NCBI GenBank assembly: GCA_963756875.1
Contig: CAVWPA010000001.1
Span: 256,001-320,000, forward strand
Origin: an uncultured Verrucomicrobiae bacterium
GTDB taxonomy: Bacteria > Verrucomicrobiota > Verrucomicrobiia > Chthoniobacterales > UBA10450
DNA: 64,000 nt
Direction: 5' to 3'
Shown here: positions 7,942-44,119 of the stretch, piece after piece
Layout of the letters: the number at the start of each line of letters is the position of its first letter
Position numbering within the stretch: the first letter of the stretch is position 1
Notes under the pieces: generated by a model
What the model saw: the letters and a program-made list of their open reading frames with translations, nothing else
Database searches by the model: none
Told to the model about the DNA's origin: nothing
Made by a program: the position numbers and the translations under genes

Positions 7942-8682
7942 CTAGCGGCTTATCGACGACGAAGGTTTCGCAACTGGGGTCGCGGCGGGGTGCTGTTTGG
8001 CCGCGGACGACATCGCTGGTGCCGGCATTATGCGAGCCGTCGCGTAGAACACGTTGGACGGATAGTTGGGATAATTCGGTCTGATCGTTATCGCCCCGAA
8101 AGCCGCGCGGTTGGTGTCGTGCGGTTGGACAGTAATCAGAAACTCTCCCGAGGCGGGTCCCCGCTGTACCTTTGTCGTAAAATCCGGGTTGGAAGAGGTA
8201 ACATTGAGTTCCGTGATCGCGACCCCTTGATTCGTTTTGACCGTGATCGTCTTGGGTTTTGGTTCTTCTCCGCCCTGCCAGTAAACGAGTACCGGTTTCA
8301 TGGTGAGCAGCTGCGGAATTTCCGTTTTGAGGGTCAGAATCGTAGTAGCACTCTTGGGATCGGGATCGTCGGTTTGGACGGTAACCGTCTTCACCTGTGT
8401 GCCGTTGCGGCCGCCGATGTTGAACGTCGCGGTGATCTCGCCTTTTTCGCCAGGATCAACCTGTTTTTTTTGCGTTCGCGCCGCGGTGCAACCGCAGGAA
8501 GCGCGGACCATCTTAAAATGCAACGGCGTCTTCCCGACGTTTTCATATTTAAAGTGGGCGACGGCTTGCTTGTCGCCAATGGCCGGATGCAGATCGACGG
8601 TGGTCTGTTCCCATTTCAATTCGGCCTGCGCGGCCGCGGCAAGCAGGATCGATAACGCGAGAGGAAGAATGCAGGTTTTCAT
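7942..8682 (-). CDS. DUF1573 domain secreted protein
   Basis: Signal peptide; F.YENVG..PL...ASCGCT...PGEKGEI. Confidence 0.85.
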   Translation of the reverse strand: MKTCILPLALSILLAAAAQAELKWEQTTVDLHPAIGDKQAVAHFKYENVGKTPLHFKMVRASCGCTAARTQKKQVDPGEKGEITATFNIGGRNGTQVKTVTVQTDDPDPKSATTILTLKTEIPQLLTMKPVLVYWQGGEEPKPKTITVKTNQGVAITELNVTSSNPDFTTKVQRGPASGEFLITVQPHDTNRAAFGAITIRPNYPNYPSNVFYATARIMPAPAMSSAAKQHPAATPVAKPSSSISR

Positions 8683-9603
8683 TTTTTCGAATAGAAACGC
8701 TCAATATAATCAGCCACGGCGTCACGCCAAGTGCGGGGCGGTGTGCCAGTGAGAGATGCGAATTTTGCGGTGGAAAGGACGGAGTACACCGGGCGGCGCG
8801 CGATCCAATCTTTCATCTCGCGAAGTTTCAATGCGCCAACTTTCTTCGCTTTCAGCGGAATGCCTGACGAATGGCAACAATCGAGCGCAAATTGGGCGTA
8901 CTCCTGCCAGCTGCACTCGCCGGTATTCGCAAAATGCAGAATGCCGCGGTAATCAGCGGCGATGTTGGTAGGGACGCCGCGCTGCGGCGTCCGCGGACGG
9001 TGCTCATGGGCATTGAGAAATATCAGCAACATTTCGGCGATATCGTGCGTGTATGTAGGCGTGGAAAATTTGTCTGCGATCGCTTCGACATGCTCTTCTT
9101 TGCGCGCCCGCTCGATGATCGCGTCCACAAAGCTCGGCCGATCCGGACCAAAGACCCACGAGACGCGCACGACGAGGTGCTGCGGTCCAGCGTCCAAAAC
9201 ATTCTTTTCTCCCGCGCGTTTCGATTCGCCGTAAACATTAACCGGGTTTGCCGGATCTTCTTCCGTGTACGGTTCGCGTTTCTCGCCGTCGAAAACGTAG
9301 TCAGTACTGAAATGGATAAGCTTTGCGTTCTTTTGCGTGCAGATTTCGGCAAAGAGCTTTGGCGCTTGCGCATTAATTCGAAGAGCCTGGTCGCGTTGCG
9401 TCTCGCAGAGATCGACATTCGTAAACGCAGCGGTATTGATCAGCACGTCAAAATCGAGCGGCGAGATCCAATCGGTGATTTGTTTTTCATCGCTCAGATC
9501 GAGTTGTTCGTGATCGAAACCCAGGATCTCGAATTTATCGCGATAGGCGCGCATGAGCGCGCCGCCGAGACGGCCGCCTGCACCGATGATGACAATTTTG
9601 CAT
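8679..9603 (-). CDS. rfbD: dTDP-4-dehydrorhamnose reductase (1-nt insertion just after the ATG; in-frame REP insert)
   Basis: KIVIIGAGGRLG, NTAAFTNVD, STDYVFDG, YGESK. Confidence 0.93.
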
Positions 9604-9607
9604 TCTT

Positions 9608-9688
9608 GTGTAGCGGCGCTCTATGAGCGGCGCATTATTCTACAAAGTGAACTTCGAGCGACCCCGAACGCTTTCGGGGCCGCTACAA
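9608..9688. repeat. REP-like element (TGTAGCGGCG family) with inner CCCCGAACGCTTTCGGGG hairpin
   Basis: TGTAGCGGC...GCCGCTACA. Confidence 0.75.
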
Positions 9689-9689
9689 G

Positions 9690-9757
9690 TCAATATCTGC
9701 CCGTGAGCTCCAGTAATCGGTTGCCACCAAGCTTCATTGTCGATGTACCACTGAACG
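9690..9757 (-). pseudogene. Displaced rfbB 3'-end remnant B
   Basis: Translates (1 indel) as VQWYIDNEAWWQP/LLELTGRY*, versus RfbB IEWYMDHPDWWQPLLERAGRY. Confidence 0.85.
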
Positions 9758-9777
9758 GCTCGCATAGAGCGCGGGCC

Positions 9778-9865
9778 AGGTGGATCGACCGCTCCGCGGG
9801 CGATGCTAGATGTGGCGCCGAAGGCGCACTGCCCAACATCGAGCAAAGGACTGCTCGATCCGCCT
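9778..9865. repeat. Imperfect palindromic element between the rfbB remnants
   Basis: AGGTGGATCGA...CGATG and CATCG...TCGATCCGCCT form inverted arms. Confidence 0.65.
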
Positions 9866-10003
9866 AGTACCTTCCCGTTCGCTCGAGCAGCGGTTGGCCA
9901 CCAAGACTTGATGATCGATGTACGATTGAATTGTTTCCAGGAGGGCGTGCTCAAAGTTGCGCCGCGGTTTCCATTTCGGTTCGCGCAGCGCGAAAGAAGA
10001 ATC
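9864..10003 (-). pseudogene. Displaced rfbB 3'-end remnant A, distal part
   Basis: DSSFALREPKWKPRRNFEHALLETIQSYIDHQ/SWW/QPLLERTGRY*, versus RfbB DSSFAQRELKWKPHRNFEHGLSETIEWYMDHPDWWQPLLERAGRY. Confidence 0.92.
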
Positions 10004-10006
10004 ATT

Positions 10007-13000
10007 CTACGGGTAGGTCGCTTTGTAGAACAGTTTCGTTGGGCCAACCGCCCCCGTGTCTATAAACTGCCAATTGCCGAACGGATCGGAAGTGGTCAGA
10101 CCAATCATCCCGAAAGTGCCGGCCGTCAGATCGGGCGACGAGAGAATGCTGAAGTTTGCATTCACTACTCCTCTGCCTTCCAACTGAACGCTGCCATCGG
10201 ACAATCGCTGAATCGATGTGATGCTGAGACCGAAGCTGCCGAATTCAAAAGCGCCAATGTCAGTCATTCCGATTCGGGGATAACCGCGCTGGTCGCCGGG
10301 CGCGCCTGTTTGACCGGTGTTGATTGCGGGACTTCCCGCGAGTAATGCAAACGTTTGCGTCGGTCCTCCATTGAACGCGAGCGGGCCGAGCATTGGATCG
10401 GTGTTAATCATGTCGCCGGGCGCGGTGAGAAAACCGCCGCCGTTATCGCTGCTCAGATTGTAGCCGCCCGACACGGGCGCGCCGGAGAAGGTGTGGAGGT
10501 TGGCGTTGGTATTGTTGAAAATGTCATTATCGATGAAAATGCCTTGGCCGTAAAATGTGCTGATTCCGCCGCCGTGATTACTCGCGGTATTACCACTGAG
10601 AGTTGAACTCTCGAGGATAAGTTGGGGGGAGATGGGCGAGGAGGCGTTAGTGCCGGTAAAGACTGCGCCTCCGTTCACTGCGTTGTTCCCGCTGAACGTG
10701 CAATTGATGATGATCGCTGCAGCGGAATTTACACAAACACCGCCTCCCGCGCCGCCGCTCGCATTGTTTCCGCTAAACGTGCAATTGAAAATCTGCGACG
10801 GCTCGGCCGTGCTGCGCTCGCTGATGAGAATTCCGCCGCCGTGGCTGTTCGCCAGATTCCCCGTGATCGCGCAGTATTCAAGATCGACAACGCTTCGATC
10901 GACAAGAATTCCACCGCCAGTGTCTAAGACCATTGAACTGCCAACTTTGCCATTGGCGATGGTTAGGCCGCGAATGCTGACGAACGGACCGTTAGCCGTG
11001 CCGTTGCCGACGGTGAAAATGCGATAGTCGCCGCCGACATTTCGTCGCACCGTCAAAAGATCGGCGCCGGGACCTTGCAGGAAAATCGGCGTGGTCATCG
11101 ACGGTAGCGCGCTGTTTAAATGAATGATGCCGCTGAGAAGCGGATAGAATTTGATAAACTGATCGCCAGCTTGCGCATTCGCCGCATTGATCGCTTCGCG
11201 CAGGGAACAATCGATCGCGTCGCAAGTCCCATCGTTATGATCGTCGAGCGTGTTAACGAGCAACACCGCCCCAAATTCGAACGCGCCGATGTCCGCACCG
11301 TCGCCGCCGGATGCGTTTGGAATTTGCGGGTGGTCGTTAGGCCGCGGCTGCGACCTTTGATCGACAGTCAACCCGAACGAATTGCCGGCATCGATGGCCG
11401 GACTGCCAGTGAGTAAAGCCATCGTATCCGTCTTGCCACCGTTATCCTGGAGCGCTCCGAGATTGGGATTGATCGGGTTAGCGATTGTTCCTTTGAGATC
11501 ACTCATCGAATTGAAACCGCTGCCGAAATCGACCTTCCCGATAAAGTTGTAGCCTTGCGAAGAAAAGTTGCCGGACACATCTGGAACAGCGCTGCCGATA
11601 TTAGTGGCAACGATCGTGTTCGCGATAATTGCCGTGCCTGCAATCCGCTTGAATCCGCCGGTACTAGAACCGGGTGCGCCATTGTTAGGCAATGAACTCC
11701 CCGTTCCGCCGCTGCCGCCTGTTCCCGTATTGCCCGCGATCGTGCAGCCGGTCATGGCGAGCGAGCCATTGGTGAAGAGCCCACCGGCGTCACCGGTGCC
11801 GCCGGTGCCACCGATCCCTCCCGGATTGTTGCCCCCCGCGCCACCGGCCGCGGTGTTGTTCGCGATGGTGCAATTCGTCAGCGTCAAGGTGGCGCCGGAT
11901 TCGTTAAACACGCCGCCGCCTTCGGCCGCTCCACCATTGCCCGCCGCTGAAGTCGAACTGGGATTACGCGAACGATGGCGTTGCGCGAAAAATGAACTGC
12001 TATTTGCACCATGACCGCCGATCGCCTGGTTTCCGGCGATCGTGCAGCGATTCAACGTAAGCACGCCGCCCGTGGCGTTGTAAACGCCGGCGCCTTGAGC
12101 CGCACCGCCATTGGCCCCGCCAGTCGCTTGATCGTTTAAAAACATGCAGTCATGCACGGTGAGTGTGCCGCTGTTGAAAAGACCGGCGCCAACAGCCGAC
12201 CCTCCTGTTCCAGCATTGACGGCACCGTCGCGAATCGTCACGCCTAAGAGAAAATTAGGACTTCCGCTGAAGCTGAACACGCGCGTTTGGCCTGCGCCGC
12301 TTATGATTGTCGATCTTGCACCAAAGCCGGCGAGCGTGAGCGGATCGGTCACATTGAGAGGACCAAGCGCGGGATTCAAATCAATCGTGCCGCCAACCAG
12401 AAACAGAATCGTGTTCGCGCCGGAGATGAAGTTGGCGCGGTTGATCGCTTCGCGCAGGCTGCAATCGACGACCCCGCAAAGTCCGTCATCCGCGTCGCCG
12501 GTGGTTGTAACATTGAACTGCGGCGAACCGCTTTGGAGCACATCGGGCGCTCCTTCATACGCACCGACATCGGTGCCGTCGGTGCCCGGACCGTTGTTGA
12601 AATACGGATGATCGTAGACGCGTTGCTGTCCGCGCTGGTCGGTCGCCGCGCCGGACAAATTTTTCCCGTGATCGACGGCCGGCCCTTGCACCAAGGCGAC
12701 GGTTTGAGTCGGCCCGCCGTTATCCTTCAAGCCTGCCGGATCGAGCATCGGATCGGTAAAGAGCTGATCGGTCGGAGCAGGCCCAAAATTACTGTAGCCG
12801 TTATCAGTAAAAATATTGAAACCAGCGGACGTAACGCCCGAACTTAACGAAGAAGAGGCCAGATCGGGCGCCTTGATAATGCTGCTCCCGATCGTTGCGT
12901 TGGACGCGGCTATGGTTGAGCCAGGCTCCAGCCCGCCGAACCCAGCATCGCTGTCGTTGCCACTAAATGTGCAGTTCCGGATTGTCGTTGGACCGACAGA

Positions 13001-13861
13001 GGAAATTGCTCCGCCCTCGCCGGCTACACTAGAGCAACCATTATTTGAAGTTTGATAACCCAAGGCCCGGTTATTCACGAACGTGCTGTTGTCCACTACC
13101 AGGTCATTGCCGTCGTGATAAATTGCGCCTCCGAGCGCAGCAGAGTTACCGCTGAAAGTGCATGCACTGACGTAGAGAGATGCGGATGCAGAAACGTTGT
13201 CTTTATGATTGTTGATCGCACCGCCGACCTCAGGATCCTCGTTCGACGCATCAATACAGCCAAAGGGCAAGGAATCACCCGTGAACGTGCAGTTTGTCAC
13301 CGTCGTCGTGGCAGACGCTACGTAGCTGCCATAATCCTGAGCATACTGCTCGATCGCCCCTTTCGCGTTACCGCTAAGGGTACAGCCAATCGCCGTTAGG
13401 GTGACGCCGGAATTACCTTGTGCGTAATTAGAGATACCCATCCCGCTATTCTGGAACACACAATTCTGCACCGTCAGGTTGCCGCCATTGCTTATGCCCA
13501 GTCCTCCACTGGAAATGGTGACCCCGGAAATATTGACGGTGTATTTCGGATTGCCGATCAGGAGTGGCCCGATCCTGAAAACGAGCTGATTGGCATTCTG
13601 GGCAAAGGCAAGACTGGCCGCGCCCGGGCCGCTGATCGTCAGATCCTTGTCAATGAGCATTTGACCACTAGTCACCGTGATCGTGCCCGTGACGGAGAAA
13701 TTGATCGTGTCGCCAGATGCGGCCGCGGCGATCGTGTCGCGTAACGATCCCGCGCCGCTGTCATTCAGATTTGTGACGGTGAGGGTCGTGGCCGGGGCGC
13801 TCGAAGCGAGGGCGATTGCCCCCGCAATGGCGACCAGCCGGTGTCGGGTAGAAACGGTCAC
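10007..13861 (-). CDS. Large secreted beta-helix protein with two CSLREA motifs and three choice-of-anchor-Q-like modules
   Basis: Signal peptide; GSLRD, CSLREAIN x2; NGGPT/KT..AL...DQR...D(I/V)GA(Y/F)E x3; GGxI/CTFSGN beta-helix repeats; C-terminal FY tail. Confidence 0.88.
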   Translation of the reverse strand: MTVSTRHRLVAIAGAIALASSAPATTLTVTNLNDSGAGSLRDTIAAAASGDTINFSVTGTITVTSGQMLIDKDLTISGPGAASLAFAQNANQLVFRIGPLLIGNPKYTVNISGVTISSGGLGISNGGNLTVQNCVFQNSGMGISNYAQGNSGVTLTAIGCTLSGNAKGAIEQYAQDYGSYVASATTTVTNCTFTGDSLPFGCIDASNEDPEVGGAINNHKDNVSASASLYVSACTFSGNSAALGGAIYHDGNDLVVDNSTFVNNRALGYQTSNNGCSSVAGEGGAISSVGPTTIRNCTFSGNDSDAGFGGLEPGSTIAASNATIGSSIIKAPDLASSSLSSGVTSAGFNIFTDNGYSNFGPAPTDQLFTDPMLDPAGLKDNGGPTQTVALVQGPAVDHGKNLSGAATDQRGQQRVYDHPYFNNGPGTDGTDVGAYEGAPDVLQSGSPQFNVTTTGDADDGLCGVVDCSLREAINRANFISGANTILFLVGGTIDLNPALGPLNVTDPLTLAGFGARSTIISGAGQTRVFSFSGSPNFLLGVTIRDGAVNAGTGGSAVGAGLFNSGTLTVHDCMFLNDQATGGANGGAAQGAGVYNATGGVLTLNRCTIAGNQAIGGHGANSSSFFAQRHRSRNPSSTSAAGNGGAAEGGGVFNESGATLTLTNCTIANNTAAGGAGGNNPGGIGGTGGTGDAGGLFTNGSLAMTGCTIAGNTGTGGSGGTGSSLPNNGAPGSSTGGFKRIAGTAIIANTIVATNIGSAVPDVSGNFSSQGYNFIGKVDFGSGFNSMSDLKGTIANPINPNLGALQDNGGKTDTMALLTGSPAIDAGNSFGLTVDQRSQPRPNDHPQIPNASGGDGADIGAFEFGAVLLVNTLDDHNDGTCDAIDCSLREAINAANAQAGDQFIKFYPLLSGIIHLNSALPSMTTPIFLQGPGADLLTVRRNVGGDYRIFTVGNGTANGPFVSIRGLTIANGKVGSSMVLDTGGGILVDRSVVDLEYCAITGNLANSHGGGILISERSTAEPSQIFNCTFSGNNASGGAGGGVCVNSAAAIIINCTFSGNNAVNGGAVFTGTNASSPISPQLILESSTLSGNTASNHGGGISTFYGQGIFIDNDIFNNTNANLHTFSGAPVSGGYNLSSDNGGGFLTAPGDMINTDPMLGPLAFNGGPTQTFALLAGSPAINTGQTGAPGDQRGYPRIGMTDIGAFEFGSFGLSITSIQRLSDGSVQLEGRGVVNANFSILSSPDLTAGTFGMIGLTTSDPFGNWQFIDTGAVGPTKLFYKATYP

Positions 13862-13875
13862 AATTAAGAGGCCTT

Positions 13876-13904
13876 ACCTTACCAATAACGCAGTTTGCGG
13901 ACAA
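13876..13904 (-). promoter_or_regulatory. Putative sigma70 promoter of the CSLREA gene
   Basis: TTGTCC-17 nt-TAAGGT on the minus strand, 14 nt before the GTG start. Confidence 0.45.
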
Positions 13905-13936
13905 GCTTTTTGCCGTGAACTCGTCCATATCTTCCC

Positions 13937-13980
13937 ACGATCGTGGCCTAAGGGTGGGTCACGAAACTGATCAGGCTCTT
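13937..13980 (-). pseudogene. Displaced rfbB 3'-end remnant A, proximal part
   Basis: KSLISFVTH(x)LGHDR, versus RfbB EKLISFVEDRLGHDR. Confidence 0.8.
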
Positions 13981-14006
13981 GACCGGCGTGGTCGCGGCGT
14001 TGGCTG

Positions 14007-14146
14007 TCTGGGGGAGTACGCCGCCCGTCCCGGGTGTTGGAAAATGCCGGTACGACTCGGACCGTCTCGCCGAAACGATCTTTATTCTGTGAACACTTGC
14101 GAAACCGAGACGGTTTCGCCAACGCTCGAGACGAGCGTGCTCCCCG
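14007..14146. repeat. ~140-bp palindromic element, GGGAGC(A/G)CACGCG family
   Basis: GGGGAGTACGC...GCGTGCTCCCC termini; related copies at about 26266, 43924, 50715 and 54581. Confidence 0.8.
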
Positions 14147-14150
14147 ATCC

Positions 14151-15141
14151 TTAGGTACCGCCCGGCGCGCTCGAGCAGTGGCTGCCACCAATCCGGGTGG
14201 TCCATGTACCACTCGATCGTTTCGGACAGGCCGTGCTCGAAATTCCGGTGCGGTTTCCATTTCAATTCGCGCTGCGCAAATGAGGAATCGATTGCGTACC
14301 GGCGATCATGCCCAAGCCGATCTTCCACGAACGAGATCAGTTTCTCGGGTTTGCCGAGTTTTTTCAGGATCATTTTCACCAGATCGAGATTCGTCAACTC
14401 GTTGCCGCCGCCGAAATTGTAAATCGCTCCCGGTTTTCCCTCGAAAAGCGCATCCACGATTCCTGCGCAGTGGTCCTCCACGTGGATCCAGTCCCGGACA
14501 TTCATCCCGTCGCCATAAACCGGCAACGGCTCGTCGCGCAGCGCCTTGATGATCATGAGCGGAATCAATTTCTCGGGAAATTGGTACGGCCCGTAATTGT
14601 TCGAGCAGCGCGTGATGACGACTTCCTGGGCGTAGGTTTTGTGGCAGGCGAGCGCCAGGAGATCGGCGCCGGCTTTGCTGGCGGAGTAGGGCGAGCTCGG
14701 GTCGAGTGGGCTTTGTTCGTTGAATTTCCCCGTTGCGCCTAACGACCCGTAAACCTCGTCCGTGGAAATTTGAATGAAGCGCTGAACGCCATGTCTTCGT
14801 GCGGCATTCAGGAGGACGCTGGTGCCGATGACGTTGGTATGGATGAAATTCTCCGGCGAATTGATGCTGCGATCGACATGCGATTCGGCCGCAAAATTGA
14901 TCGCGGCAAAAAACTGGTGCTCGACCATCAGCTCGTCGATTTGATCTACATTAGCGATGTCAGCTTTGAAAAATTCGTAGCGTTCGCCATGTTCTTCGAC
15001 CACACCATCGAGATTGGCCAGGTTGCCGGCGTAGGTAAGAATGTCGACGTTGGTGACCAAGGCCGGCTTGTAATGTTGCAGAATGTAGCGAATAAAATTG
15101 CTCCCGATGAATCCGCAGCCACCGGTCACGAGAATGCGCAC
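14151..15141 (-). CDS. rfbB: dTDP-glucose 4,6-dehydratase (stop shifted by 1 nt, so the ORF call reads on to 13948)
   Basis: ILVTGGCGFIGSNF, AAESHVDRS, STDEVYG, YSASK, CSNNYGP, LGHDRRY. Confidence 0.95.
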
Positions 15142-26157: not shown

Positions 26158-29028
26158 ATGATCGTCCCTCCTCGGCCTGCCGCCCCAGGCATTTGCAAAC
26201 GTAAACCCAAGGGTAATATGGAACGCGCCACTACCGCGATGGCATGTAATGTGACCGATGTTCCGTGGGGCGCACGCGCCCTCGCGTGCTCGTTTCGGCG
26301 CCCTGGCCGAAACGTCTCCCTGCAAAGTTCGCAATGGCGGGGGCGCCATTGCCAGCACGCGAGGCGCGTGCGCTCCCCGGAATTCGCGGCGAGGGCAGGC
26401 GCCGGTGCCACACGCGTTGCTGGATTTATCGGTATTGTTCTGTTTGCATCGGTGGGCATGTCTGCTGGCGAGAGCTTGCACACACAAATCATTTCCGGAT
26501 CGGCCGGCGCGAAAATCACGCTTTCCGTCTCCGATGCCGATTTTTCGATCGAATATCGAGCGCCGTATTTGGTTACGGGCAAGAGCGCTGTTTATGTCGC
26601 GCTTGGAACGCATCGCGAGATTGGCTCCGCAGTGATTCCATTTCAACGCAATCAGGAGGGTTCGACCGTTTTTCTTCCGTTCAAAGCCGATTTGCTTGCT
26701 TATGCGAGGTCGGGTTCCTGTCTCGAGCGAAAATGGGAAAAATGGAAATGGAACGAGGCTAAAAGTTCGACCGCTAACCACGTCGAGACCGGAGAGGGAA
26801 CATGTACATTGCGACTTCCACGCTCTCAATTTGGCGACGCGAAAACGGTCGATTGCGCGATCTACGCAAAGGACCTCTCTCAAAACGATGGCTGGGGAAC
26901 ATTTCTGGGCTGCAGCGATCCCGCTGTCGAGCCGGGAACGGGCGACAGATACATTCCGCACTATCTCGAGATCAATCTCGATCCTGGTAGGGACGCCGCG
27001 CTGCGGGGTCCGGTCGGCGCAGCGCGCCGACCCTACCAATTCGCGGTGCAACGAGCGCGTCTTGGCGGGACGAAGCTCAGGATTTATCAATTGTTCGTCC
27101 GTTTGTTCGGAAATACGAACGAGAACAGAAAAGAAGACGGCACCATCGCGGAGAACGGTGTTGGGAAATTCAACGATATCAATGACGCGGCGCTAAGATC
27201 GTTGCACGATTTGGGCTTCAGCTGCATCTGGCTGACCGGAGTTTTGCAGCAAGCCACCGCCACGGATTACTCGAGCATCGGTCAACCGGCGGACGATCCC
27301 GATCTGCTCAAAGGACTGGCCGGAAGTCCGTATGCCATCAAGGACTACTTCGACGTGTGCCCGGATTACGCGCGGGACCCGGCGAAACGTCTTGATGAAT
27401 TCAAGGCGCTCCTGAACCGCATCCACAAGCACGGCATGAAAGCGGTGATCGATTTCGTTCCGAATCATGTGGCGCGCAGCTACAGTTCCGATGTAAAGCC
27501 GGAGCTAAACTTCGGCACGAAAGGCAATAACGGCGCGGGCGACGACACTTCGATTTTTTTCGCGCCTCAGAACAATTTCTTCTATTTGAAACCGGATGCG
27601 AGCGGCCCTCCGCTTCACCTGCCGAGTTGCAAAAACGGCGAGCCGATCAGCCCAACCTGCAAAGCAATCGCGAAGCTTGGAGGGACGACCGAAGCCAGCC
27701 CGCCGGGGCGGGTGTCGTCCCAAGATTTGGGACGGGACAGCGCCCGTCCCTCCACGTGTGACGGCTTGTTCGATGGCGAAATGAAATTTGGCCGCGTAAC
27801 AGGCAACAACGTCGTGAGTTGGACGCCGTCGATCAACGATTGGTACGAAACTGTTAAACTCAATTACGGTTACGATTTCACCGGTGGCTCAAACGGCGCG
27901 CGCGAATATCCAAACGCGGTCACACCCGACAAAGCGGTTCCCGATACCTGGAAAAAAATGGACCAAGTCCTTGCGCATTGGCAATCAATGGGGGTCGACG
28001 GATTTCGCTGCGACATGTCGCACATGGTTCCCCCCGCGTTTTGGAACTGGGCGATCGCCAAGGCGCGCGCGCGGAATCCCGATGTGATCTTTATCGGGGA
28101 GGCTTACGACAACGACCCGGCCAAGGTTCCGGGCGTCGATCCGGTCATTTCCCAACTTCAGGGCGGGAAATCGAACGTCATGTTCTATTTGCTCGATGCG
28201 GGATTTAACGGCGTCTACGACGATCCAACTTATCGCGCGATCAAGAAAATCTATGAAGGTCCGGGATGGGCGAACGATATCGATGCAGCGCGTCCGGACG
28301 ACTTCATTTTCGAGAACTCGATACGTTACGCCGAAAACCATGATGAAGTTCGGCTGGCGGCCAAGTCGCAATGGGGCGGAGTTGGGAGACAAGCGGGCCC
28401 GGCGATTTGCGCAATCCTTTATGGACTCTCGCGAGGGCCGGTCATGCTTTACAACGGCCAGGAAGTGGGCGAGCCGGGCGAGGGGATCGAAGGCTTCGGC
28501 AGCAGCGACGCGCGCACTTCCATTTTCGATTATTGGTCGATGCCGGAAATGGTGAAATGGGTGAACGATCACAAATACGACGGAGGCCGCCTCTCGCAGG
28601 AACAGAAACAACTTCGCTCTGCTTATGGTCGTTTGATGAATCTGCTAAGCCAGCCGGCGTTCCGCAATGGCATCTGTATTCCGCTGAATGCGACCAATCG
28701 GGACAATCCGGATTACGGCCGGTTGCCTAACGAACAACCAAGCGGTCACTGGTTATACAGTTTTCTGCGATACGATGTGCAAAGTGGCCAGAGGTTTTTA
28801 GTCGCAGTCAATCTTCATCCCACGACTGCGCTCAAAGACATTCATGTCCGTCTTCCGGACACGATATTTGCCAAACAAGACCGGCAAACGCATGTCCGGG
28901 TGGTGGACCGTTTGAATCCCACTCCGCTTGCCGACATCATATCGACGATCGGATTTTTGCAGGATTCAGGAGTTCCCATTGCAGAGCTGCCCCCTCTGAG
29001 CGTAGCGTATCTCGAGTTGAAGCTGTAG
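26158..29028 (+). CDS. GH13 alpha-amylase-family protein (start uncertain; signal-like stretch near 26410-26465)
   Basis: IYQLFVRLFGN, GSPYAIKDY, DFVPNH, DGFRCD, IGEAY, ENHDE: catalytic D/E/D present. Confidence 0.9.
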   Translation: MIVPPRPAAPGICKRKPKGNMERATTAMACNVTDVPWGARALACSFRRPGRNVSLQSSQWRGRHCQHARRVRSPEFAARAGAGATRVAGFIGIVLFASVGMSAGESLHTQIISGSAGAKITLSVSDADFSIEYRAPYLVTGKSAVYVALGTHREIGSAVIPFQRNQEGSTVFLPFKADLLAYARSGSCLERKWEKWKWNEAKSSTANHVETGEGTCTLRLPRSQFGDAKTVDCAIYAKDLSQNDGWGTFLGCSDPAVEPGTGDRYIPHYLEINLDPGRDAALRGPVGAARRPYQFAVQRARLGGTKLRIYQLFVRLFGNTNENRKEDGTIAENGVGKFNDINDAALRSLHDLGFSCIWLTGVLQQATATDYSSIGQPADDPDLLKGLAGSPYAIKDYFDVCPDYARDPAKRLDEFKALLNRIHKHGMKAVIDFVPNHVARSYSSDVKPELNFGTKGNNGAGDDTSIFFAPQNNFFYLKPDASGPPLHLPSCKNGEPISPTCKAIAKLGGTTEASPPGRVSSQDLGRDSARPSTCDGLFDGEMKFGRVTGNNVVSWTPSINDWYETVKLNYGYDFTGGSNGAREYPNAVTPDKAVPDTWKKMDQVLAHWQSMGVDGFRCDMSHMVPPAFWNWAIAKARARNPDVIFIGEAYDNDPAKVPGVDPVISQLQGGKSNVMFYLLDAGFNGVYDDPTYRAIKKIYEGPGWANDIDAARPDDFIFENSIRYAENHDEVRLAAKSQWGGVGRQAGPAICAILYGLSRGPVMLYNGQEVGEPGEGIEGFGSSDARTSIFDYWSMPEMVKWVNDHKYDGGRLSQEQKQLRSAYGRLMNLLSQPAFRNGICIPLNATNRDNPDYGRLPNEQPSGHWLYSFLRYDVQSGQRFLVAVNLHPTTALKDIHVRLPDTIFAKQDRQTHVRVVDRLNPTPLADIISTIGFLQDSGVPIAELPPLSVAYLELKL
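26266..26379. repeat. GGGAGCGCACGCG-family palindromic element
   Basis: GGGGCGCACGCGCCCTCGCGTG...CACGCGAGGCGCGTGCGCTCCCC. Confidence 0.8.
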
Positions 29029-29091: not shown

Positions 29092-30921
29092 TTATTTCAC
29101 GCGAAACACCGTGCCGGTCAGCGCCGGGAGAACCAGTTCGGTTCCATTTTTAGCCACTTGTGTCTTTACCGCTCCCGTTTCGCCGCGGGTGATAAAGATG
29201 GGAATAAGATGTTTTGCGGCGATCTGAAGCTGCATTCGGGCCGCGTTGTCACTGCGGTTGAAAGCGATAATTAATCTCTCTTTGCTCGATTTTCGGCTGA
29301 TAACGATTGTGCGCTGGTCGTCGTCCGTGGCCAAAACCGTAAAATCGCCGTGATTGAGCGCGTCGTGCTTATGTCGCAACGCGATCGCCCGTTTGTAGAA
29401 TTGGAACAGGTCGTCATCGAATTTTACTTCGTCTGCGTCGCGCTCGCGACCGCGCGGATCGATCGTCTGCGCCTCATACGTTTTGTCTCGCCAGACCATC
29501 GGCATCCGGTCGTCCGGATCGCCCCCGCCCCACATGCCGGCTTCGTCTCCGTAATAAATCATCGGCGCACCGACGTACGTCATTTGCAGCAACACAACCA
29601 GTCGCTGGATGTTTCGTTCGCGCTCGTTTGGCTTGCGAATGTCATACGTCGGCGACGAAGCCGGGCTGTTGTGTTGATTAAAATCAAATTCCTGGTTGCC
29701 GCTGTAGACCGTGCCTGCGCCATTCACGATCATCGATGCCAGGCGATCGGTATCGTGCGAGTCGACCAGGTTTTGCATCACGGCGGCAGTGGATGGAGGG
29801 AATTGTTTTCGCCGGTCATCGAGAAGGCGCGCAAATGTCGATGGCGAAATGTTGTTGTCGATCAGGAATCCCTTCACCGGGACGGCAAATGCGTTGTAAT
29901 TCATCGACGCGGAGAATCCGCATTTTTTTACAAAGCCTGTCGCGTTTTTCCAAACTTCCGCCGTGGTATAAACGTTTGGATTTAGTTTTCGAACAAACGC
30001 GTTCCAATCCGACCAAAATTTGGCCGGCCGCTCGTCCGCGGCGTCGAGCCGCCATCCATCGATTCCGTCTGCGCGATTGCCGTTGGGTCGCATCCAGCGC
30101 CGGGTCGCCTGGAAAATGTAAGCTTTCGGTCCCGGGGCCATGTCTTTTCCGTCGGCCGAGGCGGCGAAGATCGGCAGCGTCATGTGTCCCCACCAGCCCT
30201 TGTAACTGAATTCATTTCGCTTCGTGTTCGGATCGTCGAAACTCGTGATCGCGTACCAGCTTTTATAGCGGGAATGCGCCTGATTTGTGCGGATGTCCTT
30301 GAACGCAAAGAAATCGCGGCCGGTATGGTTAAAAACGCCGTCGATAATCACGTGAATGCCGCGGGCGTGACATTGTTTGAGTAGCTCCAGGAACAGTTTG
30401 TCCGCGGCAGTCCATTGCCATGCTTTGGGATCTTCGGTTTCGCTGTTGATGATTTTGAGGTCGCCCTGCGGATCCGGCCCAAAATACGGGTCGATGTGGT
30501 GGTATGTGTTGCCGTCGTATTTATGCAGCGATTCCGAGTAGAAAAGCGGATTGAAATAGATGGCGTTGATCCCGAGGTCGGTCAGATAATCCAGCTTGTC
30601 GATTACGCCCTTGAGATCGCCCCCATAGCGCCGATCGAGCACGCCATCCTTGTAGAAATCAGGTCCGAGTTCCTTTTCCCACTCGTCGCGCGAATACCAG
30701 TCCGCTATCCAGGATGAAATGCGCCACTCGGGGCCGGGCTTGATCGGATACTCGAGCGAATCACGCGTCGGATCGTTGGTTGGATCGCCGTTGCAGAAGC
30801 GTTCCGGGAAAATCTGGTAAAAGACCGCTTCGGCCGCCCAGGGCGGCGAGCCCGCCGTGTCGGCCCTGCCCGAAAGCGTGAAGAGGCAGAGTGCCGCTAA
30901 AACGTAGAAATAGATGCGCAT
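29092..30921 (-). CDS. Exported GH13 neopullulanase/cyclomaltodextrinase-like enzyme
   Basis: Signal peptide; YQIFPERF, YGGDLKG, DGVFNH, DGWRLD, AEVW, SHD, YYGDEAG. Confidence 0.92.
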   Translation of the reverse strand: MRIYFYVLAALCLFTLSGRADTAGSPPWAAEAVFYQIFPERFCNGDPTNDPTRDSLEYPIKPGPEWRISSWIADWYSRDEWEKELGPDFYKDGVLDRRYGGDLKGVIDKLDYLTDLGINAIYFNPLFYSESLHKYDGNTYHHIDPYFGPDPQGDLKIINSETEDPKAWQWTAADKLFLELLKQCHARGIHVIIDGVFNHTGRDFFAFKDIRTNQAHSRYKSWYAITSFDDPNTKRNEFSYKGWWGHMTLPIFAASADGKDMAPGPKAYIFQATRRWMRPNGNRADGIDGWRLDAADERPAKFWSDWNAFVRKLNPNVYTTAEVWKNATGFVKKCGFSASMNYNAFAVPVKGFLIDNNISPSTFARLLDDRRKQFPPSTAAVMQNLVDSHDTDRLASMIVNGAGTVYSGNQEFDFNQHNSPASSPTYDIRKPNERERNIQRLVVLLQMTYVGAPMIYYGDEAGMWGGGDPDDRMPMVWRDKTYEAQTIDPRGRERDADEVKFDDDLFQFYKRAIALRHKHDALNHGDFTVLATDDDQRTIVISRKSSKERLIIAFNRSDNAARMQLQIAAKHLIPIFITRGETGAVKTQVAKNGTELVLPALTGTVFRVK

Positions 30922-31011
30922 TGCAACGGGTAATGTTGAGTTGTAGAGGCGCTCGCAGCGGCGAGCGCCTGTTTACTCTGGTGCGGCGCTTCACACAAAC
31001 GCCGCTAAACT

Positions 31012-34000
31012 CTACGGCACCACACGCACGTGGTAAAAGGCCGGGGTTGTCGCAGTAACGGATTCGTTGGTTGTCGAACCGTTCGCTGTGATCTGATTAC
31101 CAATAGACACGTAAGTTCCATTAGGAGCCGGCGCGGATTCCAGTTGATAATGTTTTCCGGAGACGCTGCTCCACGTTACTGAGACCGTATTGGCATCCGG
31201 CCGAGTAATGTTCATCACTTTAAAGATGGATTTTGGATCAAATGGATTGGTACCCGCCACGTCCTCCGCTGCGTTATCCATTCCGTCGCCATCATCATCT
31301 CCGTTCGGATCCAGGTACTTGATCGTCGTCGGCGAGCTGGATGGTCCGGTAATGCTGTTGTCACTCGGATTCACGACCTGAATCGTGACGACAACAGTTT
31401 GGCCGGGCGCAGCGTTGATTGTGTACTGAGTCGAGCAAGTGATGACAGTCGGCTGCTGTAGTCCATCGATCGTGTAGTCGACCCTGTAACATGGGGTAAC
31501 GCCTTCCCCGTCTGCGGGCGCAGCGTTCCAGGTCACGGTCACGCTGGTGCCGATGGCGTAGGAATATGCATTCGGTGTGCTGGCAGATCCCGGTGTCGTG
31601 CTTGGCGCAGTCACGTCGTAAACCTTCAAATACTGCGTCTCGTAGGGACTCGTCGTCCAAGATGCATTATCAGTGGGCACTTTATTCAGCGAAACGAAAA
31701 CCCCATTGGTTAACACATCGGTCCCGGTCCGGCCGCCACCCCAGAGCAAATAATTTCGGCGGCTCGGATCCTGCCCGGTGTAGGCCGCAATGTTGCGCAC
31801 ATTGTAGGTCCGGCTCGTTTTAATCCCGAACAGATTCGATCCGTTCTGCGTGATGTTCACGTTGAAATTGCCGGACTGATTGTTGCCTCGATCCAGGTTT
31901 ACAAAGGCAAATATGACATCGGTCGTGGCGGGCGAGCCGTTTGGCGTTTCGTATTTTGCGACCGAGAAGATGCTCGGCTGAATGTGCCATCGGTCTGGTT
32001 CAGGTAGTAACGGTTCGAGCTCCGTAACGCATTGCTGAACAGGCGTGCCTGGCCGATCCCGGAGTAAACCGGATAAAGCTGATCGTTGCCGAAATCCGTG
32101 TCGTTCCAAATCGGCGTCATGGAGTTGAAGTCCTTAAAGTCGGCGATGTTCTTGCCAAAGTTCACTTCGTAATGCTGGTAACCGTAGGTGGTCGAGATTC
32201 CCAGCTCTTGTCCCGGGAAAATAAGCGGCACGCCGTCGATGGTGCTGCAAACGGCATATCGAATGACTCCCTGCCAGGGATCCTGATAGGCTTCTTCGTC
32301 GTGCGACATGTTATTGAGCAGAACCAGGCTTTGCCCGTAAGAGCTGCGGCGAGCGTCAAAGATGCCGCGATAGTCGCTGGTCGAACCCGCATTCTTGAGC
32401 GGGAAAACGATGTTTTCGTTAAGGATATCGAAATGCCGGTTGGAACGATAAGTGACAGCCCCGCCGTCGAGCGATTCGGCCATGAAAACGAAATTCCATT
32501 TTCGTGTCCGGGTCTTGTTAATGATGTACTCCCAAAGTTGTGGAGGAAGGCCCTGGCCAAAGTCGGCGCGCAGGCCATCGATTCCATGAGCGGTTTGCGT
32601 GGCCAGATCGGCGCCCGCATGCACGCCTGTCTGATCCAGCCAGTAAAGCGTGTAATTCGAAAAATATTTCCAGACATTTTGTGTGACCTGATCGAAATGA
32701 CCATTGCCATCGCCGGATAAGTTTTCGGTGCCGATCGAGTAGTCGAACCAATCCTGTTCGTTCAGGTAGTTCCCGTTGTCGTCGGGATTGATGTCCACCA
32801 GCGCCGCATAGCGCCCAAAGTAAACGTCGCGGACGTCATCCCATTTTCCAAAGTCGCCGCGATCGGGCGCAACGGCGATGCTATTGGCATCGAATGCCCG
32901 CATCGCGTAGTTGCCGCTTCGAGAATAAAATCGTGCGTCGACGTCGCGGAACAATTGTGATGCGCTTGGATTGGAGCCGAAAAGGCTTGTGCCTTGCGAG
33001 CTGATCTCGCAATCGGGTGCCGTGTGATTGAACGGGGCATCGAGCATTACGCCCACGCCTGCGTCATCCGCGGCGCCGACCAGCCCGACAAAAGCTGCTT
33101 TGGCCGCATCGCGGTTTTGCTGGTTGGTGATGGCATTCGGCAGGTTCGGGTCGTAGTTCATCGACATCAGCGGATCGATCTCGAAGAAATTGCGGATGGA
33201 ATAGGGGCTGCCTGGGTTATGGCCCTGTTGTGCTTCGAGCGTGATCGGATGAATCGGCTGAAACCAGAGCCAGTTGGAGCCGAGCGTCTTGAGGTAGTTC
33301 AAATTCCAATGATTGTTTGCCCCTTGATGCGGTGCATTCGGCGCGTCGAACAAATCTTCCAGCGTGCCGCGGTTGGCGAATTGATCGCCGTCCGCTTCGA
33401 CGTTGAAGACGTTCATTTCATAGAGATTGATGTCTCTTGCGTCGACCGGGGAAACAACAATTGCGTGGTCGCGTCGTCCCGCTCCGATATCCGTATAGTA
33501 ATGCCAGTTCGGATCGCCTTGCACTTTCCAGCGCGCAGTCAGTCGATAAGCGCCGGTCTTGTTCGCATCGAGCGTGAGCGAGTATTCCCCGGGATTTCCG
33601 TCTGCCGGCATGGTGTACGCCTTGTAGTAATGCGAATCGTCGCCCGCCACGAGCAGGTTGCCGTCCAGAGGTTCGATTCCTTCTTCGGTTTGGATCCCAT
33701 TGGTGTCGGTATAGGGGAGGGTCGCCTTGTCCCGACGGTTCAGGTTCGTGTAAATCTCCACGGCTGTGATGTTGGGCTGGCCGGGCTGAAAGACGATCGT
33801 AAATGGGATTGAATCGCCGTGCGTCTCGTCAATGAACACGTGGCTCGTGGTGTAATTCGCGTTCAACGTGCCGTTCGTCGGACTCGTGACCGTCAAAACC
33901 GGGTCGCCAACGTTGCCGATGTTGAAGAGAAAATGTGCCCGTGGTAATCGGTGCCGTCACCGGCGTTGTAATCGCCGAATTTTTGTTCGTTGTTCGCCGG

Positions 34001-34895
34001 ATTCCAGAACCCAACCTTGTATTTGATTGTTGTGCCGAGCGGCTCGTTTAACAGATTCGGACCGGTCGCGACCCACCACATGGCGGTCCCGGCTGCGCTT
34101 CCGGTGCCGCCATTTTGTCCGTTGTTGTTGTCCGGGTGATCGTAAATGAAATTCGACCACCTGCGTGGAGCCGCTCCGGCCGTGCCCGGAGATCGTGCCG
34201 GCACCGGGTCGGTCCATCGGTCGTATAATAAAGAGCGCCGTTCGTGGCCCATCGCGTCGACAAATCGTTGATGTCGCCGATGTAACCGATCTTCGCCCAG
34301 AACTGGATATCCGAGCCGGAGTTCGCCCGATTGTTCGCGTGAAAAATCCAGCCGGGCCGATTGCGAATCGTGAACGGAAACGTTGCAGCGGTACTTTGTC
34401 TGATTCGTGACATCGCCGCCGTGATCGCCTGAGCCGGTACGGCGCATAAATATAGGTGTTCTCCGCGCCGCGAATCGAAAGTCAGATAGAGATAATATTG
34501 AATGACTTCGTTCGCGCCGATCCCCGCACTGGCCCGGCGTGAAACTGCGCCTGCCAATACTGATTGTTATCGATAGTCACGACCTGGCCATAGACGTGTC
34601 GAATGGAACGAAGTTCCAGGTACCTTGGGACGCGCCTTTGTAATAGAGCTCCGCCGCCCGTCTGGTTCGCGTGTGCCATAGGAGTTATTGAATTTTTGGA
34701 CGCCGCTATAAATCGTGATGCCTTGTGTGTTGCTGATCTCCATCCACGGATCGCGCATGTGCGTGTCCCGCTCAGATCGGTGTTGTTATCCGGGATATGC
34801 CAGGCGTTCGCGGCGTGGCCGAATCGGATGGGCAAAGCTTGCCAAAGCCGATGAGCGCAAGGACCGAAACACGAAAAAACAGATCTCCCTTTCAT
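31012..34895 (-). CDS. ~1290-aa secreted multidomain GH13 enzyme (several frameshifts)
   Basis: Contiguous ORF pieces; GSPYS, DAPFNH, DGLRAD, MAES, SHDE; DxDGDG/GTNP repeat and C-terminal FY domain. Confidence 0.82.
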
Positions 34896-34903
34896 ATTCC
34901 TGA

Positions 34904-37900
34904 TTACTTATGGCACAGACTTACCTGCAGTTTATAGAACCGCGGTTGCGCTGATGTCGGCGGTGAACCGGTGTCGGTTCCGTTGTCGATGTAGGTAATC
35001 ATCGACCCCGTTCCCGAAATTGCGTTGCCCGCCGGCATCCATGGACCGTTGATGCTGCCGGCATAAAGAATTTGATAATTGCGATCGTGAATCGTCGAGA
35101 ACGTCAGGTCGACGGTCGATGGAGTCGGCCGGGTAATGATTAACTCGGCTTTGGCGCTGTCGGCCAGGACCGGGTTCGTCCCAAGAATGTATTCCTGCAG
35201 ATTGGTCAGGCCATCGCCATCCGGATCGTCGCCCGCGCGCGAAAGATCGCCGGCCTGGGCGGTTGGGTGACCGAAATACTGCTGGCTCCACCAATCGGGA
35301 ATTCCGTCGCCGTCACTGTCGTAGGTGACTGCCGCGCCCGTCTCAAATCCCAGTGCGAAATTCATAGTTCCGTTTCCTTGCAACTCTACCTGTTGCGTTT
35401 GCGCCTGGTTCCGCATCGCGACCGTATCGAGGACGTTGGCGTCCGAGTCGTTGCGCCGTCGCATTGAACGAAGCTCCAGAATAACCCGCGCCGCCAAAGC
35501 GCAGATATGCTCGCACCATGCGGCTTGGATTGGTGTTCAACAAATCGACTTCGCTCGAGCTGGTGATCAAGTTTCCGAGGTGCGATTGGCCCGCGGTCAA
35601 AAGATCGAGAAGATCCGGCGACAAGCCGAAGCGCACAAAGAGCTGAACAAATCCAGTCGTTGTATAGCTCGCCTGCAACTCACTTTTTCCGGGGGCAAGC
35701 GTAATCGTTTTGGAAATGTTGCCGTCGGAACTGGTAAATTTCCAGCCAACGCTGGAAGGCGCCGGCGCGACGGAGTAATAGTCGTTCACGTACTGGAACG
35801 TCCCGTTGCCCATGGCGTCGGTCTTGGCGAACCAGTCCTTGAACCCGGATGTTCGATAAGCGTTGACCGCAGCGCCGTTGAAATTTCCCGCGCCTTCTTC
35901 TTCGGTTTCCGATCCCGCATAGCTCGCAAAATTTCCAAGCACCTGTGAAACAGAGCCCGTGTCGATATCGCGCAACCAGGCGCCGATCAGGCGGCCACCG
36001 AGCGATTTTGCCGGTCCGTTTGTCGGGCCACCGCTTTCGAAAACGGCCAGCAGCCGATCGTTGTAGAGCAAATACTCATTTTCTCCGTCAAGATCCACGT
36101 CGGCCTGCTCGGAAACTGCGCTGCCATTGTAAGTGCCGTTGTTCGCCGCTTGCGCCCAGGTATTGACCCGCGCGTAAATCGCCGCCTCGCGCGTTTGCGC
36201 CTGGGCGATCTTCGAAAATCCGGCGAGATTTTGGAAGCCGGTGTCCGGATAGATATAGGCGCCGGTGCTGAATTTGCTCAGATCGTTCGCTGTCTCATTA
36301 TGAAACGCGGTCTCGAATTCCGAGGCGTGGATTGTCGCGCGGCCGAGCGAAAGCAGGCCTGTGTTTGTCGGTCCGGGAACGATTCCACCGAGCGCCTGCC
36401 AGCTGGTCAGGACAATTCCCGCCGGGTTGGGCGCGCCATCCAACCAGCCGTAAGGCGTTGGCATGGCCACGCCGGTCCGGATATTGAAGACCTTGCTGCT
36501 CAAACTTTCTTCGAGCGCCGAACCGAAATACCAGTTGTCGTAATTTTCCTCGTCTGCGTGGTCGATAAAATCCTTGGCCACATTTGGAAGATTCAGATTG
36601 CTGCCGCGGTTCACCGTACCCCATTGCGTTGCGGTGCCGCCGTTCGAATTGAAGCTGACCTGGTTGTTCGCAATCTGATCGGGCGTGACGATCTCGATCC
36701 ATGGATGGCTTGCCAGCCAGCGAATGTTCTTGTCGTAGGCGTCCGCACTCGCCTTTGTCGTAAAGTCTTCCCACTGATTAATGAAAATGACGGCCTGGTC
36801 CTGCTGACTATCGCGCGTTTTACGGCTCAACAATTGCCGCAGCAGGATGGGCAGACCGTTATCGTCGTTCTGGAGCAAGTAAGCGCCTACAGCATCGTTG
36901 ATGACGAATGCTTTCGTGTTGTTAATCTGGTTAATGCGGTAGCCATCGTCGCCGAGCGCCGAGTTGCGGCCGAACCATTTGAAGATATGCCGCATCTGAT
37001 CGACAAACGTGTACTGGAATCCAAGATCGGTGACCTTTTGAAGCACGCCGGGATCGGAGACGCGTTCGGGTGTCCAAAAGACGGTGCTGGAAGGCGCGTG
37101 CCCATAAATCGTGGTTAGAAAATCGTTGGCCAGTTCGACGTTGTCGGTGTTGTACGCGGTCGGGAAATAGTCGAGCATGTGGTCGGAGAATGTGCTGCCG
37201 ATCAGATCGATGGTTCCGTTGCCGATCAGATTGGAGATGCGGGCGTTGAAAGCCGGGCCATCTCGAAAACTATTTGGCGAACCGGCATCCACCTTTGCCC
37301 ATTGGATCGCGGAGGCGAGTGGCGGCGTGATGTGCAGCGTGACCGGCACGTTAAAAGCCTCATGCGCGTCGAGTGGGCGATAATAGCCGCCTCCCAGGCC
37401 ATTATTGATCAGATTCTGCGTGACGCTCCCAGGTTGAATCGCCTCGTTCCCATGGATAATGCTCACCACTTTCACCCGTTTGCCGCGATCGTTGTCGGCA
37501 TTGATCCCTACCCATTGAGTTAGCATGCTGTTGGCACCTGCAATATTCGGCTGATCCTGCCAGTAATCCGACGCGATCTTATCGTTGCGGATCGAATCGC
37601 GAATATCCGAGCGACCGCCGATGTCTCCCGCTCCAACCGGATTGTCCTGGGTGCCGTCCCTCGTCGTGAACACCTGGTAAAGAAGATTGTTCGGATCTCC
37701 ATTCCAGCCCGCATCGAGCAATGCCTGGCGGCTGATCGAGAATTCGACCGCGTCGAGATCGGAATTGTAATACGCCTTCTTAAATCCGTTCGCGGTGTTT
37801 TGATCGCGCGCGGTGACACCGAATTGGGCGAGGTCCTGGCCGATTGCCGTCGAATGGGTCGGCGAATTTTTGTCCCAGAGATAAACACGGCCAACGTCGG

Positions 37901-43765: not shown

Positions 43766-43923
43766 TAAATGGGATTCAAAGTTGGTCCGGTGAGGCGTTT
43801 AGGGGTCGAGCGGGAGCGCTCCAAAATAGTAGCGTTTTTCCCCGGAAAAATCCCGCTAAATCTTCGGAAATCTTTGCGGAAAATGGGCAGTTGTCAGGGG
43901 GACGTGGCAACGCGGATTCTGGG

Positions 43924-44056
43924 TCTGGGGAGCACAGGCCGCCGGCCTGTAGCAGTCGGCCGCTGGCCGACTGCAATTTGTGGCAACGGTCTTGCGAATT
44001 TGAGATGGTTCGCGGCAAGCTGCCGCGAACAACAGGCCAGCGGTCTGTGCTCCCCG
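43924..44056. repeat. GGGAGCAC-family palindromic element
   Basis: GGGGAGCACAGGCCGC...GCGGTCTGTGCTCCCC. Confidence 0.75.
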
Positions 44057-44065
44057 GAAGAAAAG

Positions 44066-44094
44066 AAAAGCCCCGCGCGAACGCGGGGCTTTTT
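44066..44094 (-). terminator. Rho-independent terminator (could act in both directions)
   Basis: AAAAGCCCCGCG-CGAA-CGCGGGGCTTTTT, 25 nt after the PEP-CTERM stop. Confidence 0.85.
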
Positions 44095-44119
44095 AGGAGA
44101 AACGAATCTGGAGTTGATC

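Follow-up and report, generated by a model that had tools for sequence, protein, structure and literature searches.

Displaced rfbB tails in a Chthoniobacterales family: the gene's 3' part as a probable homology anchor for the addition of genes

Insertion with long target duplication is described, in the part of the report drawn on here (PMC2853133), as occurring mostly in naturally competent species, with long direct repeats of variable length that may overlap the 3' end of a gene, and with no mobility gene. In the orphan arrays of rearrangement hotspot (Rhs), contact-dependent inhibition (CDI) and type VI secretion system (T6SS) loci, as presented in the sections of PMC5361080 considered here, an upstream anchor is conserved, a new module comes in and older parts are pushed back; homology-facilitated illegitimate recombination (HFIR) with no integrase has been proposed for them. 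A locus akin to both lies in a 64,000-nucleotide stretch (the window; contig CAVWPA010000001.1, positions 256,001 to 320,000) of an uncultured Verrucomicrobiae bacterium (assembly GCA_963756875.1, labelled G000), between rfbB, which encodes dTDP-glucose 4,6-dehydratase, and rfbD. Displaced 3' ends of rfbB (tails) lie there around an unrelated gene, the cargo. Across one Chthoniobacterales family, the 3' part of rfbB probably serves as a common anchor of homology through which genes are added, and homology-anchored, additive integration of DNA from related species is the best explanation of the locus. The data display conversion of the resident gene, retention of its old tail, joints at variable positions and no integrase among the cargo scanned. 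Displacement arrays were previously known for toxin loci, and long-repeat cases as single insertions; here a plain metabolic gene anchors a family-wide hotspot, and its stacks keep dated donor and recipient alleles.

The locus shares with insertion with long target duplication its direct repeats of more than 30 bp and variable length, an empty site in a relative (locus L120) and the lack of a mobility gene in the insert. (Loci are labelled L, genomes G, genes of G000 g, and its contigs C.) There, however, restriction-modification genes are the cargo, and the repeats in the tables drawn on are mostly more than 90% identical (PMC2853133), whereas here foreign alleles of one housekeeping gene are stacked and surface proteins are the main cargo. 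In the Rhs, CDI and T6SS arrays of those same sections of PMC5361080, what is displaced is either a useful immunity gene or a toxin tip that varies; here the incoming tail does no more than restore the same enzyme, and what the genome acquires is the unrelated gene behind it. For HFIR, or a single crossover of a recircularised fragment, one homologous end is enough (PMC3240628, in the portion used here), and the conversion tract at one end is found here in L061/L120 and L069/L094, more weakly in the window gene. The E. coli experiments in that portion gave a duplication signal in 56 of 60 clones; in the 14 that were sequenced, the lacZ end was duplicated over 109-950 bp, a range matching that of the tails here. 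Those were laboratory events with identical homology, and the insert-sized deletion of recipient DNA is absent here. A lone single crossover without later trimming would not give the L061 pattern, in which the tract starts far upstream and the tail is of recipient type.

Integrons, and the accretion of cis-mobilizable elements (CIMEs) and integrative and conjugative elements (ICEs), build stacks in which whole-gene cassettes are ordered and the newest sits at one end, as is proposed here. Unlike those, this locus has no integrase among the scanned cargo and no attC-like or fixed att core, and its spacers are pieces of rfbB. It is not a restriction-modification insertion, a toxin array or a site-specific stack. 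No literature on rfbB tail arrays, or on repetitive extragenic palindromic (REP) sequences in Chthoniobacterales, was found among the top-ranked matches.

Relatives with this rfbB are mostly labelled as Chthoniobacterales, Spartobacteria or Verrucomicrobia. The last 75 rfbB codons have a match in 299 of the 354 other family genomes, and the 47 genomes with at least two matches were searched again. In 21 of the 299, from 8 genera, one to four extra rfbB tails follow the gene on its own strand and contig, at most 16 kb downstream, in the order rfbB, cargo, old tail, cargo, old tail; the rest of the 47 have paralogues, copies on other contigs or split genes. None of the 21 belongs to the genera labelled g10 and g35. 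Of a set of 140 genomes with completeness of 90% or more, 14 contain rfbB stacks. For the nadA tail a neighbouring copy was found in none of 120 carriers of that completeness, a control that is blind to short tails and missed the 41-nt nadA remnant of G000 itself. The argF tail, a weak control with hits to pyrB-like paralogues, had no neighbouring copy among the 150 matches listed (about 47 carriers). When loci were picked by the intact gene instead, 8 of 58 high-scoring ones had a downstream tail on the same strand within 8 kb, and the same 58 had none upstream (376 kb examined) and none on the other strand. Downstream tails were found in none of 22 distant loci and none of 20 further loci, mostly from single-match genomes. 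Most of the 8 are alleles already in the set of 21, and kin are not independent. The remnant of G017 is on the same strand as its rfbB. L070 (G191, contig C8) has four short rfbB-like tails, the first being the end of a 371-aa open reading frame (ORF); its contig differs from the one with the best rfbB match, and it is possibly a second anchor or a moved stack.

Comparison of filled and empty loci bears most directly on how the stacks arise. The flanks of L126 and L120 are 92-95% identical, and L126 has an extra 2 kb behind rfbB; this insert is followed by an old tail that matches the gene end of L120 and runs collinearly into the L120 downstream DNA at 95.3% identity. Recipient DNA is retained and the tail duplicated in this pair, with no insert-sized deletion. 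In L061, which carries the same allele as L126, identity to L120 along rfbB is 0.99, 0.98, 0.95, 0.86 and finally 0.75, with the change near nt 350, while the stranded tail keeps 94% identity with its empty-site counterpart. Conversion in L061 begins well upstream of the point at which the tail starts, and every part of the tail is of recipient type. The flanks, tail and identity pattern of L126/L120 thus indicate that conversion replaced the 3' part of rfbB and that cargo came in between it and the old tail, which was left stranded. L069 and L094 have the same pattern, except that the tail begins with about 50 donor-like nt, as expected if a pre-existing cargo-tail unit entered by two crossovers. 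The conversion tracts are 500-650 nt long and reach far upstream of the tail start.

Nearly all old tails reach the stop codon. They start at nt 433-925 of the gene and are about 60-550 nt long, and 13 of the starts cluster at nt 811-858. The cluster would suit site-specific accretion of phage-, ICE- or CIME-type integrative elements that use an attB within the 3' end of rfbB and whose integrases act in trans or have since been lost. Integration that restores a gene end is familiar from e14 at icd and from CIMEs, and G000 has four tyrosine recombinase (Phage_integrase) matches elsewhere, all on C3, with the window on C1 (serine recombinases were not searched genome-wide). Against such accretion, the tail starts spread over 500 nt with no common or fixed crossover core, the long conversion tracts lie upstream of them, and none of the cargo ORFs scanned encodes an integrase, which leaves it very unlikely.

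The cargo between tails encodes Kelch, FG-GAP, DUF5650, DUF5122, dockerin, PATR, beta-helix, S8 and M12 proteins, and further PIN, TIR and Hcp-like ORFs. The Pfam scan (E<=1e-5) covered 51 of the 58 cargo ORFs of at least 100 aa; 7 listed ORFs and those below 100 aa were left out. Matches were found in 26 of the 51, and 25 had none. Integrases, recombinases and transposases are absent from the 51 and from the window cargo, in line with the first-pass annotation of the window, which had seen no integrase; restriction-modification families are likewise absent from the 51. Choice-of-anchor Q, a domain of the window cargo, is present in 7 of 13 cargo proteins tested from relatives.

The repeats in the stacks are rfbB alleles 68-93% identical, up to four deep. 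Pooled dN/dS between the remnants (n=32) and the rfbB of their own genome is 0.107, against 0.071 for intact pairs over the same columns, and it is at most 0.4 in all 29 computable remnants. Half of the remnants (16/32) are nearer to the rfbB of another genome, and half are nearest to that of their own. The latter half would fit a gene end that was duplicated locally in tandem, decayed neutrally and had cargo inserted afterwards, as would some repeats of 97-99% identity elsewhere in G000 and the p of 0.155 in an approximately unbiased (AU) test on the window tails. Local decay should, however, give a dN/dS of about 0.5 or more, and the resident genes are mosaic. The remnants of L061 and L069 are 94% and 85% identical to other genomes and 72% and 70% to their own, which refutes local duplication for these two; as a general account it is highly improbable. 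The first-pass proposal that the rfbB 3' end was repeatedly replaced and old tails pushed downstream, for which it named non-neutral dN/dS as a check, is borne out by this ratio, by the empty/filled pair and by the 21 other genomes.

In the window itself the order on the minus strand is rfbB, P1, A1, a 75-nt spacer, a 1284-aa ORF, A2, P2, B, P3 and rfbD, on contig C1 of the G000 assembly (2.69 Mb, 3 contigs, 87.6% complete). The features are as follows.

14151..15141, minus strand: resident rfbB (dTDP-glucose 4,6-dehydratase); TIGR01181, 451.6 bits, cut-off 365.1
14010..14149, minus strand: P1, decayed member of a dispersed inverted-repeat family; shuffle z -2.89, 3 other loci
13937..13980, minus strand: A1, displaced rfbB fragment (about nt 793-843), frameshifted, lacking its 3' part; by allele fit
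10007..13861, minus strand: cargo gene for a 1284-aa secreted protein with CSLREA, choice-of-anchor Q and beta-helix (PF13229, NF041518, TIGR04214)
9864..10003, minus strand: A2, displaced rfbB tail (nt 850-987) with two 1-nt insertions and a TAG stop; by rfbB similarity
9775..9863, minus strand: P2, low-copy dispersed repeat, then a half copy of a P3-type repeat; 6 other loci, z -0.87
9690..9757, minus strand: B, displaced rfbB tail (about nt 920-987) with one 1-nt insertion and a TGA stop; by family profile
9604..9689, minus strand: P3, two abundant REP-like hairpins; z -4.45, 27 and 37 other loci
8679..9603, minus strand: rfbD (dTDP-4-dehydrorhamnose reductase), the downstream boundary; TIGR01214, 274 bits, cut-off 224

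The remnants that the first pass had placed on the rfbB strand ahead of rfbD are real, but it overlooked the cargo gene at 13861-10007 (3.9 kb), which fills four fifths of the interval with an intact reading frame and has its stop codon 3 nt ahead of A2. Both parts of its single remnant A (A1 and A2) exist, but the cargo gene lies between them: what comes after A1 is cargo rather than a palindrome, and the two parts may represent separate tails. G000 has one distant paralogue of the cargo protein, at about 30% identity.

The three different stops reported for the tails (TAA, TAG and TGA) are present, but a single additional base at 14154 takes the resident TAA (14153-14151) out of frame, and the rfbB ORF as assembled continues through P1 and A1 as far as 13948. 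rfbD has one extra base directly behind its ATG at 9603 (9603-9597), and its in-frame ORF begins at 9554. Altogether, about 700 nt of tails and gene ends contain five 1-nt insertions (one each in rfbB and rfbD, three in A2 and B), four of which read as one-base homopolymer extensions; the 97 kb of G000 coding DNA tested elsewhere contain one internal frameshift site, gene ends being outside this test. For the extra bases that affect the stop of rfbB and the start of rfbD, the choice is between consensus errors confined to this region and decay of the rhamnose pathway. Such a density of insertions, without spanning reads, would be consistent with an artefact of assembly or consensus calling, this being a variable locus in a genome assembled from a metagenome. 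The one DNA read run, with 7% of words, gave contigs that covered 12 of 30 bins and no junction, and is uninformative either way. Tails 64-74% identical to rfbB are too divergent for repeat collapse, the 3.9-kb frame is intact and the same architecture recurs in 21 other genomes of 8 genera, so that an artefact is scarcely credible. Elsewhere in the window, a guaA-like gene (490-2086) is split by a frameshift, the sole internal one among the 97 kb tested.

A2 is 73.4-73.7% identical to its own rfbB at the nucleotide level (E 6e-16 genome-wide) and 76.6% to L082/L088; against the resident gene, its synonymous and nonsynonymous differences are pS 0.72 and pN 0.14. B is detected by nhmmer with the family profile at E 1e-9 and is 63.6% identical to its own rfbB and 82.4% to L096, which together with L046 is the nearest match to the first 780 nt of the window rfbB. 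The resident tail, in contrast, is nearest to that of G021, and the tree pairs the two with support 97/91. Triplet tests place a break in the window rfbB near nt 890, two of them with p 0.003. The last 100 nt or so of the resident gene look foreign, and from these comparisons B is likely the original resident end and the oldest displaced tail, A2 and A1 being best explained as later alleles. A1 is weak against its own rfbB, since 13 of 500 random 45-mers of the window score equally; it scores 64 with the L130 allele, 62 with the L083 allele and 37 with its own rfbB, which ranks 98th in fit among the full-length intact genes compared. Most differences from the resident gene (29/37 in A2, 22/24 in B) are shared with 5% or more of the other intact rfbB genes and so are mostly allelic, which agrees with the first-pass view, already favoured by the dN/dS of 0.107, that the tails are alleles of other lineages and not decayed local copies. 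The three window tails take separate positions in the tree and are joined in 0% of 200 bootstrap trees. No empty-site counterpart of the window locus itself was found among the relatives compared. In L046 (9647-14004 of that locus), the nearest to the body of the window rfbB, a CSLREA-type gene related to the window cargo at 36-46% identity separates rfbB from rfbD, with no tail remnant beside it.

The process would begin with chromosomal DNA from a relative, bringing an rfbB end and whatever lies behind it in the donor. The mosaic genes show that such DNA recombines into the resident rfbB, and the empty/filled pair shows that its far end joins inside the resident rfbB, so that the old tail from joint to stop is kept behind the cargo. 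Repeated rounds may build the stack, with the newest unit beside rfbB. Tail and conserved C-terminal domains of the cargo could then act as a second homology arm, and units may spread by two-crossover recombination, as suggested by the chimeric tail and by reused junctions: L053 has one 700-nt junction twice at 89% identity, and L054 a similar pair at 78%. DNA entry is presumably by natural transformation, with a RecA-type anchor step; ComEC, DprA and Ku are present in G000. The far joint may form directly on the chromosome (HFIR), or the fragment may be circularised before a single crossover. In the window, the CSLREA gene would be cargo and the palindromes chance content behind the stop codon of each donor. 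A reverse-transcriptase route was rejected, as the 87.6% complete G000 has no RVT_1 match. Cross-species, integrase-free gene gain becomes measurable from genomes in terms of tract lengths, donor distance and arrival order, and the locus is a possible means by which large surface proteins turn over in the abundant, mostly uncultured soil Chthoniobacterales.

Several observations weigh against this mechanism. ComEC and DprA are common in controls and are no proof of competence. MutS and MutL are present, and these are expected to hinder recombination at 80-85% identity. HFIR normally deletes recipient DNA instead of duplicating it (PMC3240628, same portion). The triplet tests on the window rfbB reach p<0.05 in 5 of 8, with parents picked post hoc; the AU test does not reject a single clade for the three window tails; and no read or independent contig from the one DNA run spans the window junctions. 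Additive integration alone also does not predict that joints crowd at cargo stop codons. Among the 22 remnants with a clear same-strand upstream gene (10 of the 32, ambiguous or opposite-strand, were omitted), the joint lies within 40 nt of the upstream cargo stop codon in 17 and within 4 nt in 7. The preferred reading is selection, by which the cargo C-terminus is spared and the joint falls before a terminator or the next gene start. Non-homologous HFIR joints are expected to have 3-10 bp of microhomology; L057, L060 and L068 have short overlaps at stop codons, which may or may not be of that kind. This tight fit is the part that calls for a specialist explanation.

One such explanation is hairpin-directed capture, in which Y1 nucleases like the REP-associated tyrosine transposases (RAYTs), or Ssn-like GIY-YIG nucleases, would cut incoming DNA at REP hairpins behind stop codons, giving gene-precise cassette ends and spreading REPs. 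The 17 joints near cargo stops would fit it, and G000 has 6 Y1_Tnp and 9 GIY-YIG matches (one in a 538-aa frame). SsnA is reported, in the part of PMC11893778 drawn on here, to cut single-stranded DNA at repeats and to modulate transformation in Neisseria. In G000 a repeat follows 9 of 13 remnant ends, against 469 of 1292 gene ends with room for one (36%; p 0.016). Repeats stand directly ahead of only 3 of 14 G000 joints, however (background 16%, p 0.39), and no such nuclease is found in the scan of 51 cargo ORFs. In the family as a whole, strong hairpins are not enriched behind new or old tails (22/81 intact ends without remnants, 7/24 with remnants, 11/30 remnants), and this capture is unlikely.

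The palindromes P1, P2 and P3 are all members of dispersed repeat families in G000, with 3, 6 and 27/37 other loci (E<=0.01). P1 and P3 fold better than shuffles (z -2.9 and -4.5), and P2 does not (z -0.9). The first pass had taken a tail plus a palindrome for the incoming unit; the usual unit is instead a tail plus one or more whole genes. The association of remnants with palindromes that it expected genome-wide appears in G000 but not across the family, and outside the window a repeat follows 2 of 11 newly arrived G000 ends. Its suggestion that REPs spread by this route is correct in that inserts between repeats consist of nothing but a REP at g338, g428, g1319, g2169 and P1/P2, but such hitchhiking accounts for a handful of the 571 gene ends with a repeat. 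The palindromes are incidental; they ride along at times and do not define the unit.

A bolder reading would make the locus an integrase-free analogue of integrons, with a conserved housekeeping-gene end as family-wide homology arm and a dedicated step that trims DNA to whole genes, so that species could trade surface-protein cassettes at 80-85% identity and stack them by arrival. The trimming might be done by hairpin-cutting single-strand nucleases or by a stop-codon-linked break. This reading as a whole, the trimming step included, is doubtful.

The same pattern occurs at other G000 genes. Among 2301 genes of our own calls, with an attC array region (C3:1.525-1.55 Mb) excluded beforehand, 15 had a 3' fragment downstream on the same strand, of which 11, rfbB included, were judged genuine; g638 (low complexity), g659 (repeat protein), g1381 (miscalled ORF) and g2175 (ambiguous) were dropped. 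No 3' fragment lay upstream and two lay on the other strand. Upstream 5' fragments were found for six genes, four of them judged genuine. The repeats are 74-99% identical (some 97-99%), and the insert is a gene, a pair that we take to be toxin-antitoxin-like, or only a repeat. The absence of cut genes at G000 joints is partly circular, the remnants having been filtered for intergenic position, and was not used. Tail displacement is general in G000, and rfbB is where it accumulates.

Related arrangements were seen in G000 alongside these. L073 (C3:1391800-1398200) is a recent insertion at a gene 5' end with a 190-nt repeat at 97% identity; it contains an 895-aa gene, a second, perfect repeat of 88 nt and a piece from the 5' end of an enolase-like gene, which suggests that several fragments took part in the event. 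L074 (C1:366388-368060) has a glycosyltransferase-like gene flanked on both sides by diverged copies of one segment, which comprises the tail of one gene, the intergenic DNA and the head of the next. A small GIY-YIG gene at C1:355657-356124 lies between 121-nt direct repeats of 98% identity. The attC-like repeat array at C3:1,530,000-1,549,045 adjoins a tyrosine recombinase and is an integron by appearance.

REP sequences also occur within genes. rfbD has an in-frame REP insert at window 8951-9008, where at least 12 aa are missing in 64 of 75 homologue alignments. The same REP family, with 41 and 59 genome hits, occurs in an amylase-like ORF (26158-29028, at about 26970-27050), and the long genes g654, g1382, g486 and g859 also match intergenic repeats. 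Such in-frame insertions resemble the Rickettsia palindromic elements. Window 29092-44915 holds a cluster of amylase-like and secreted genes, several of them apparently fragmented in our own gene calls.

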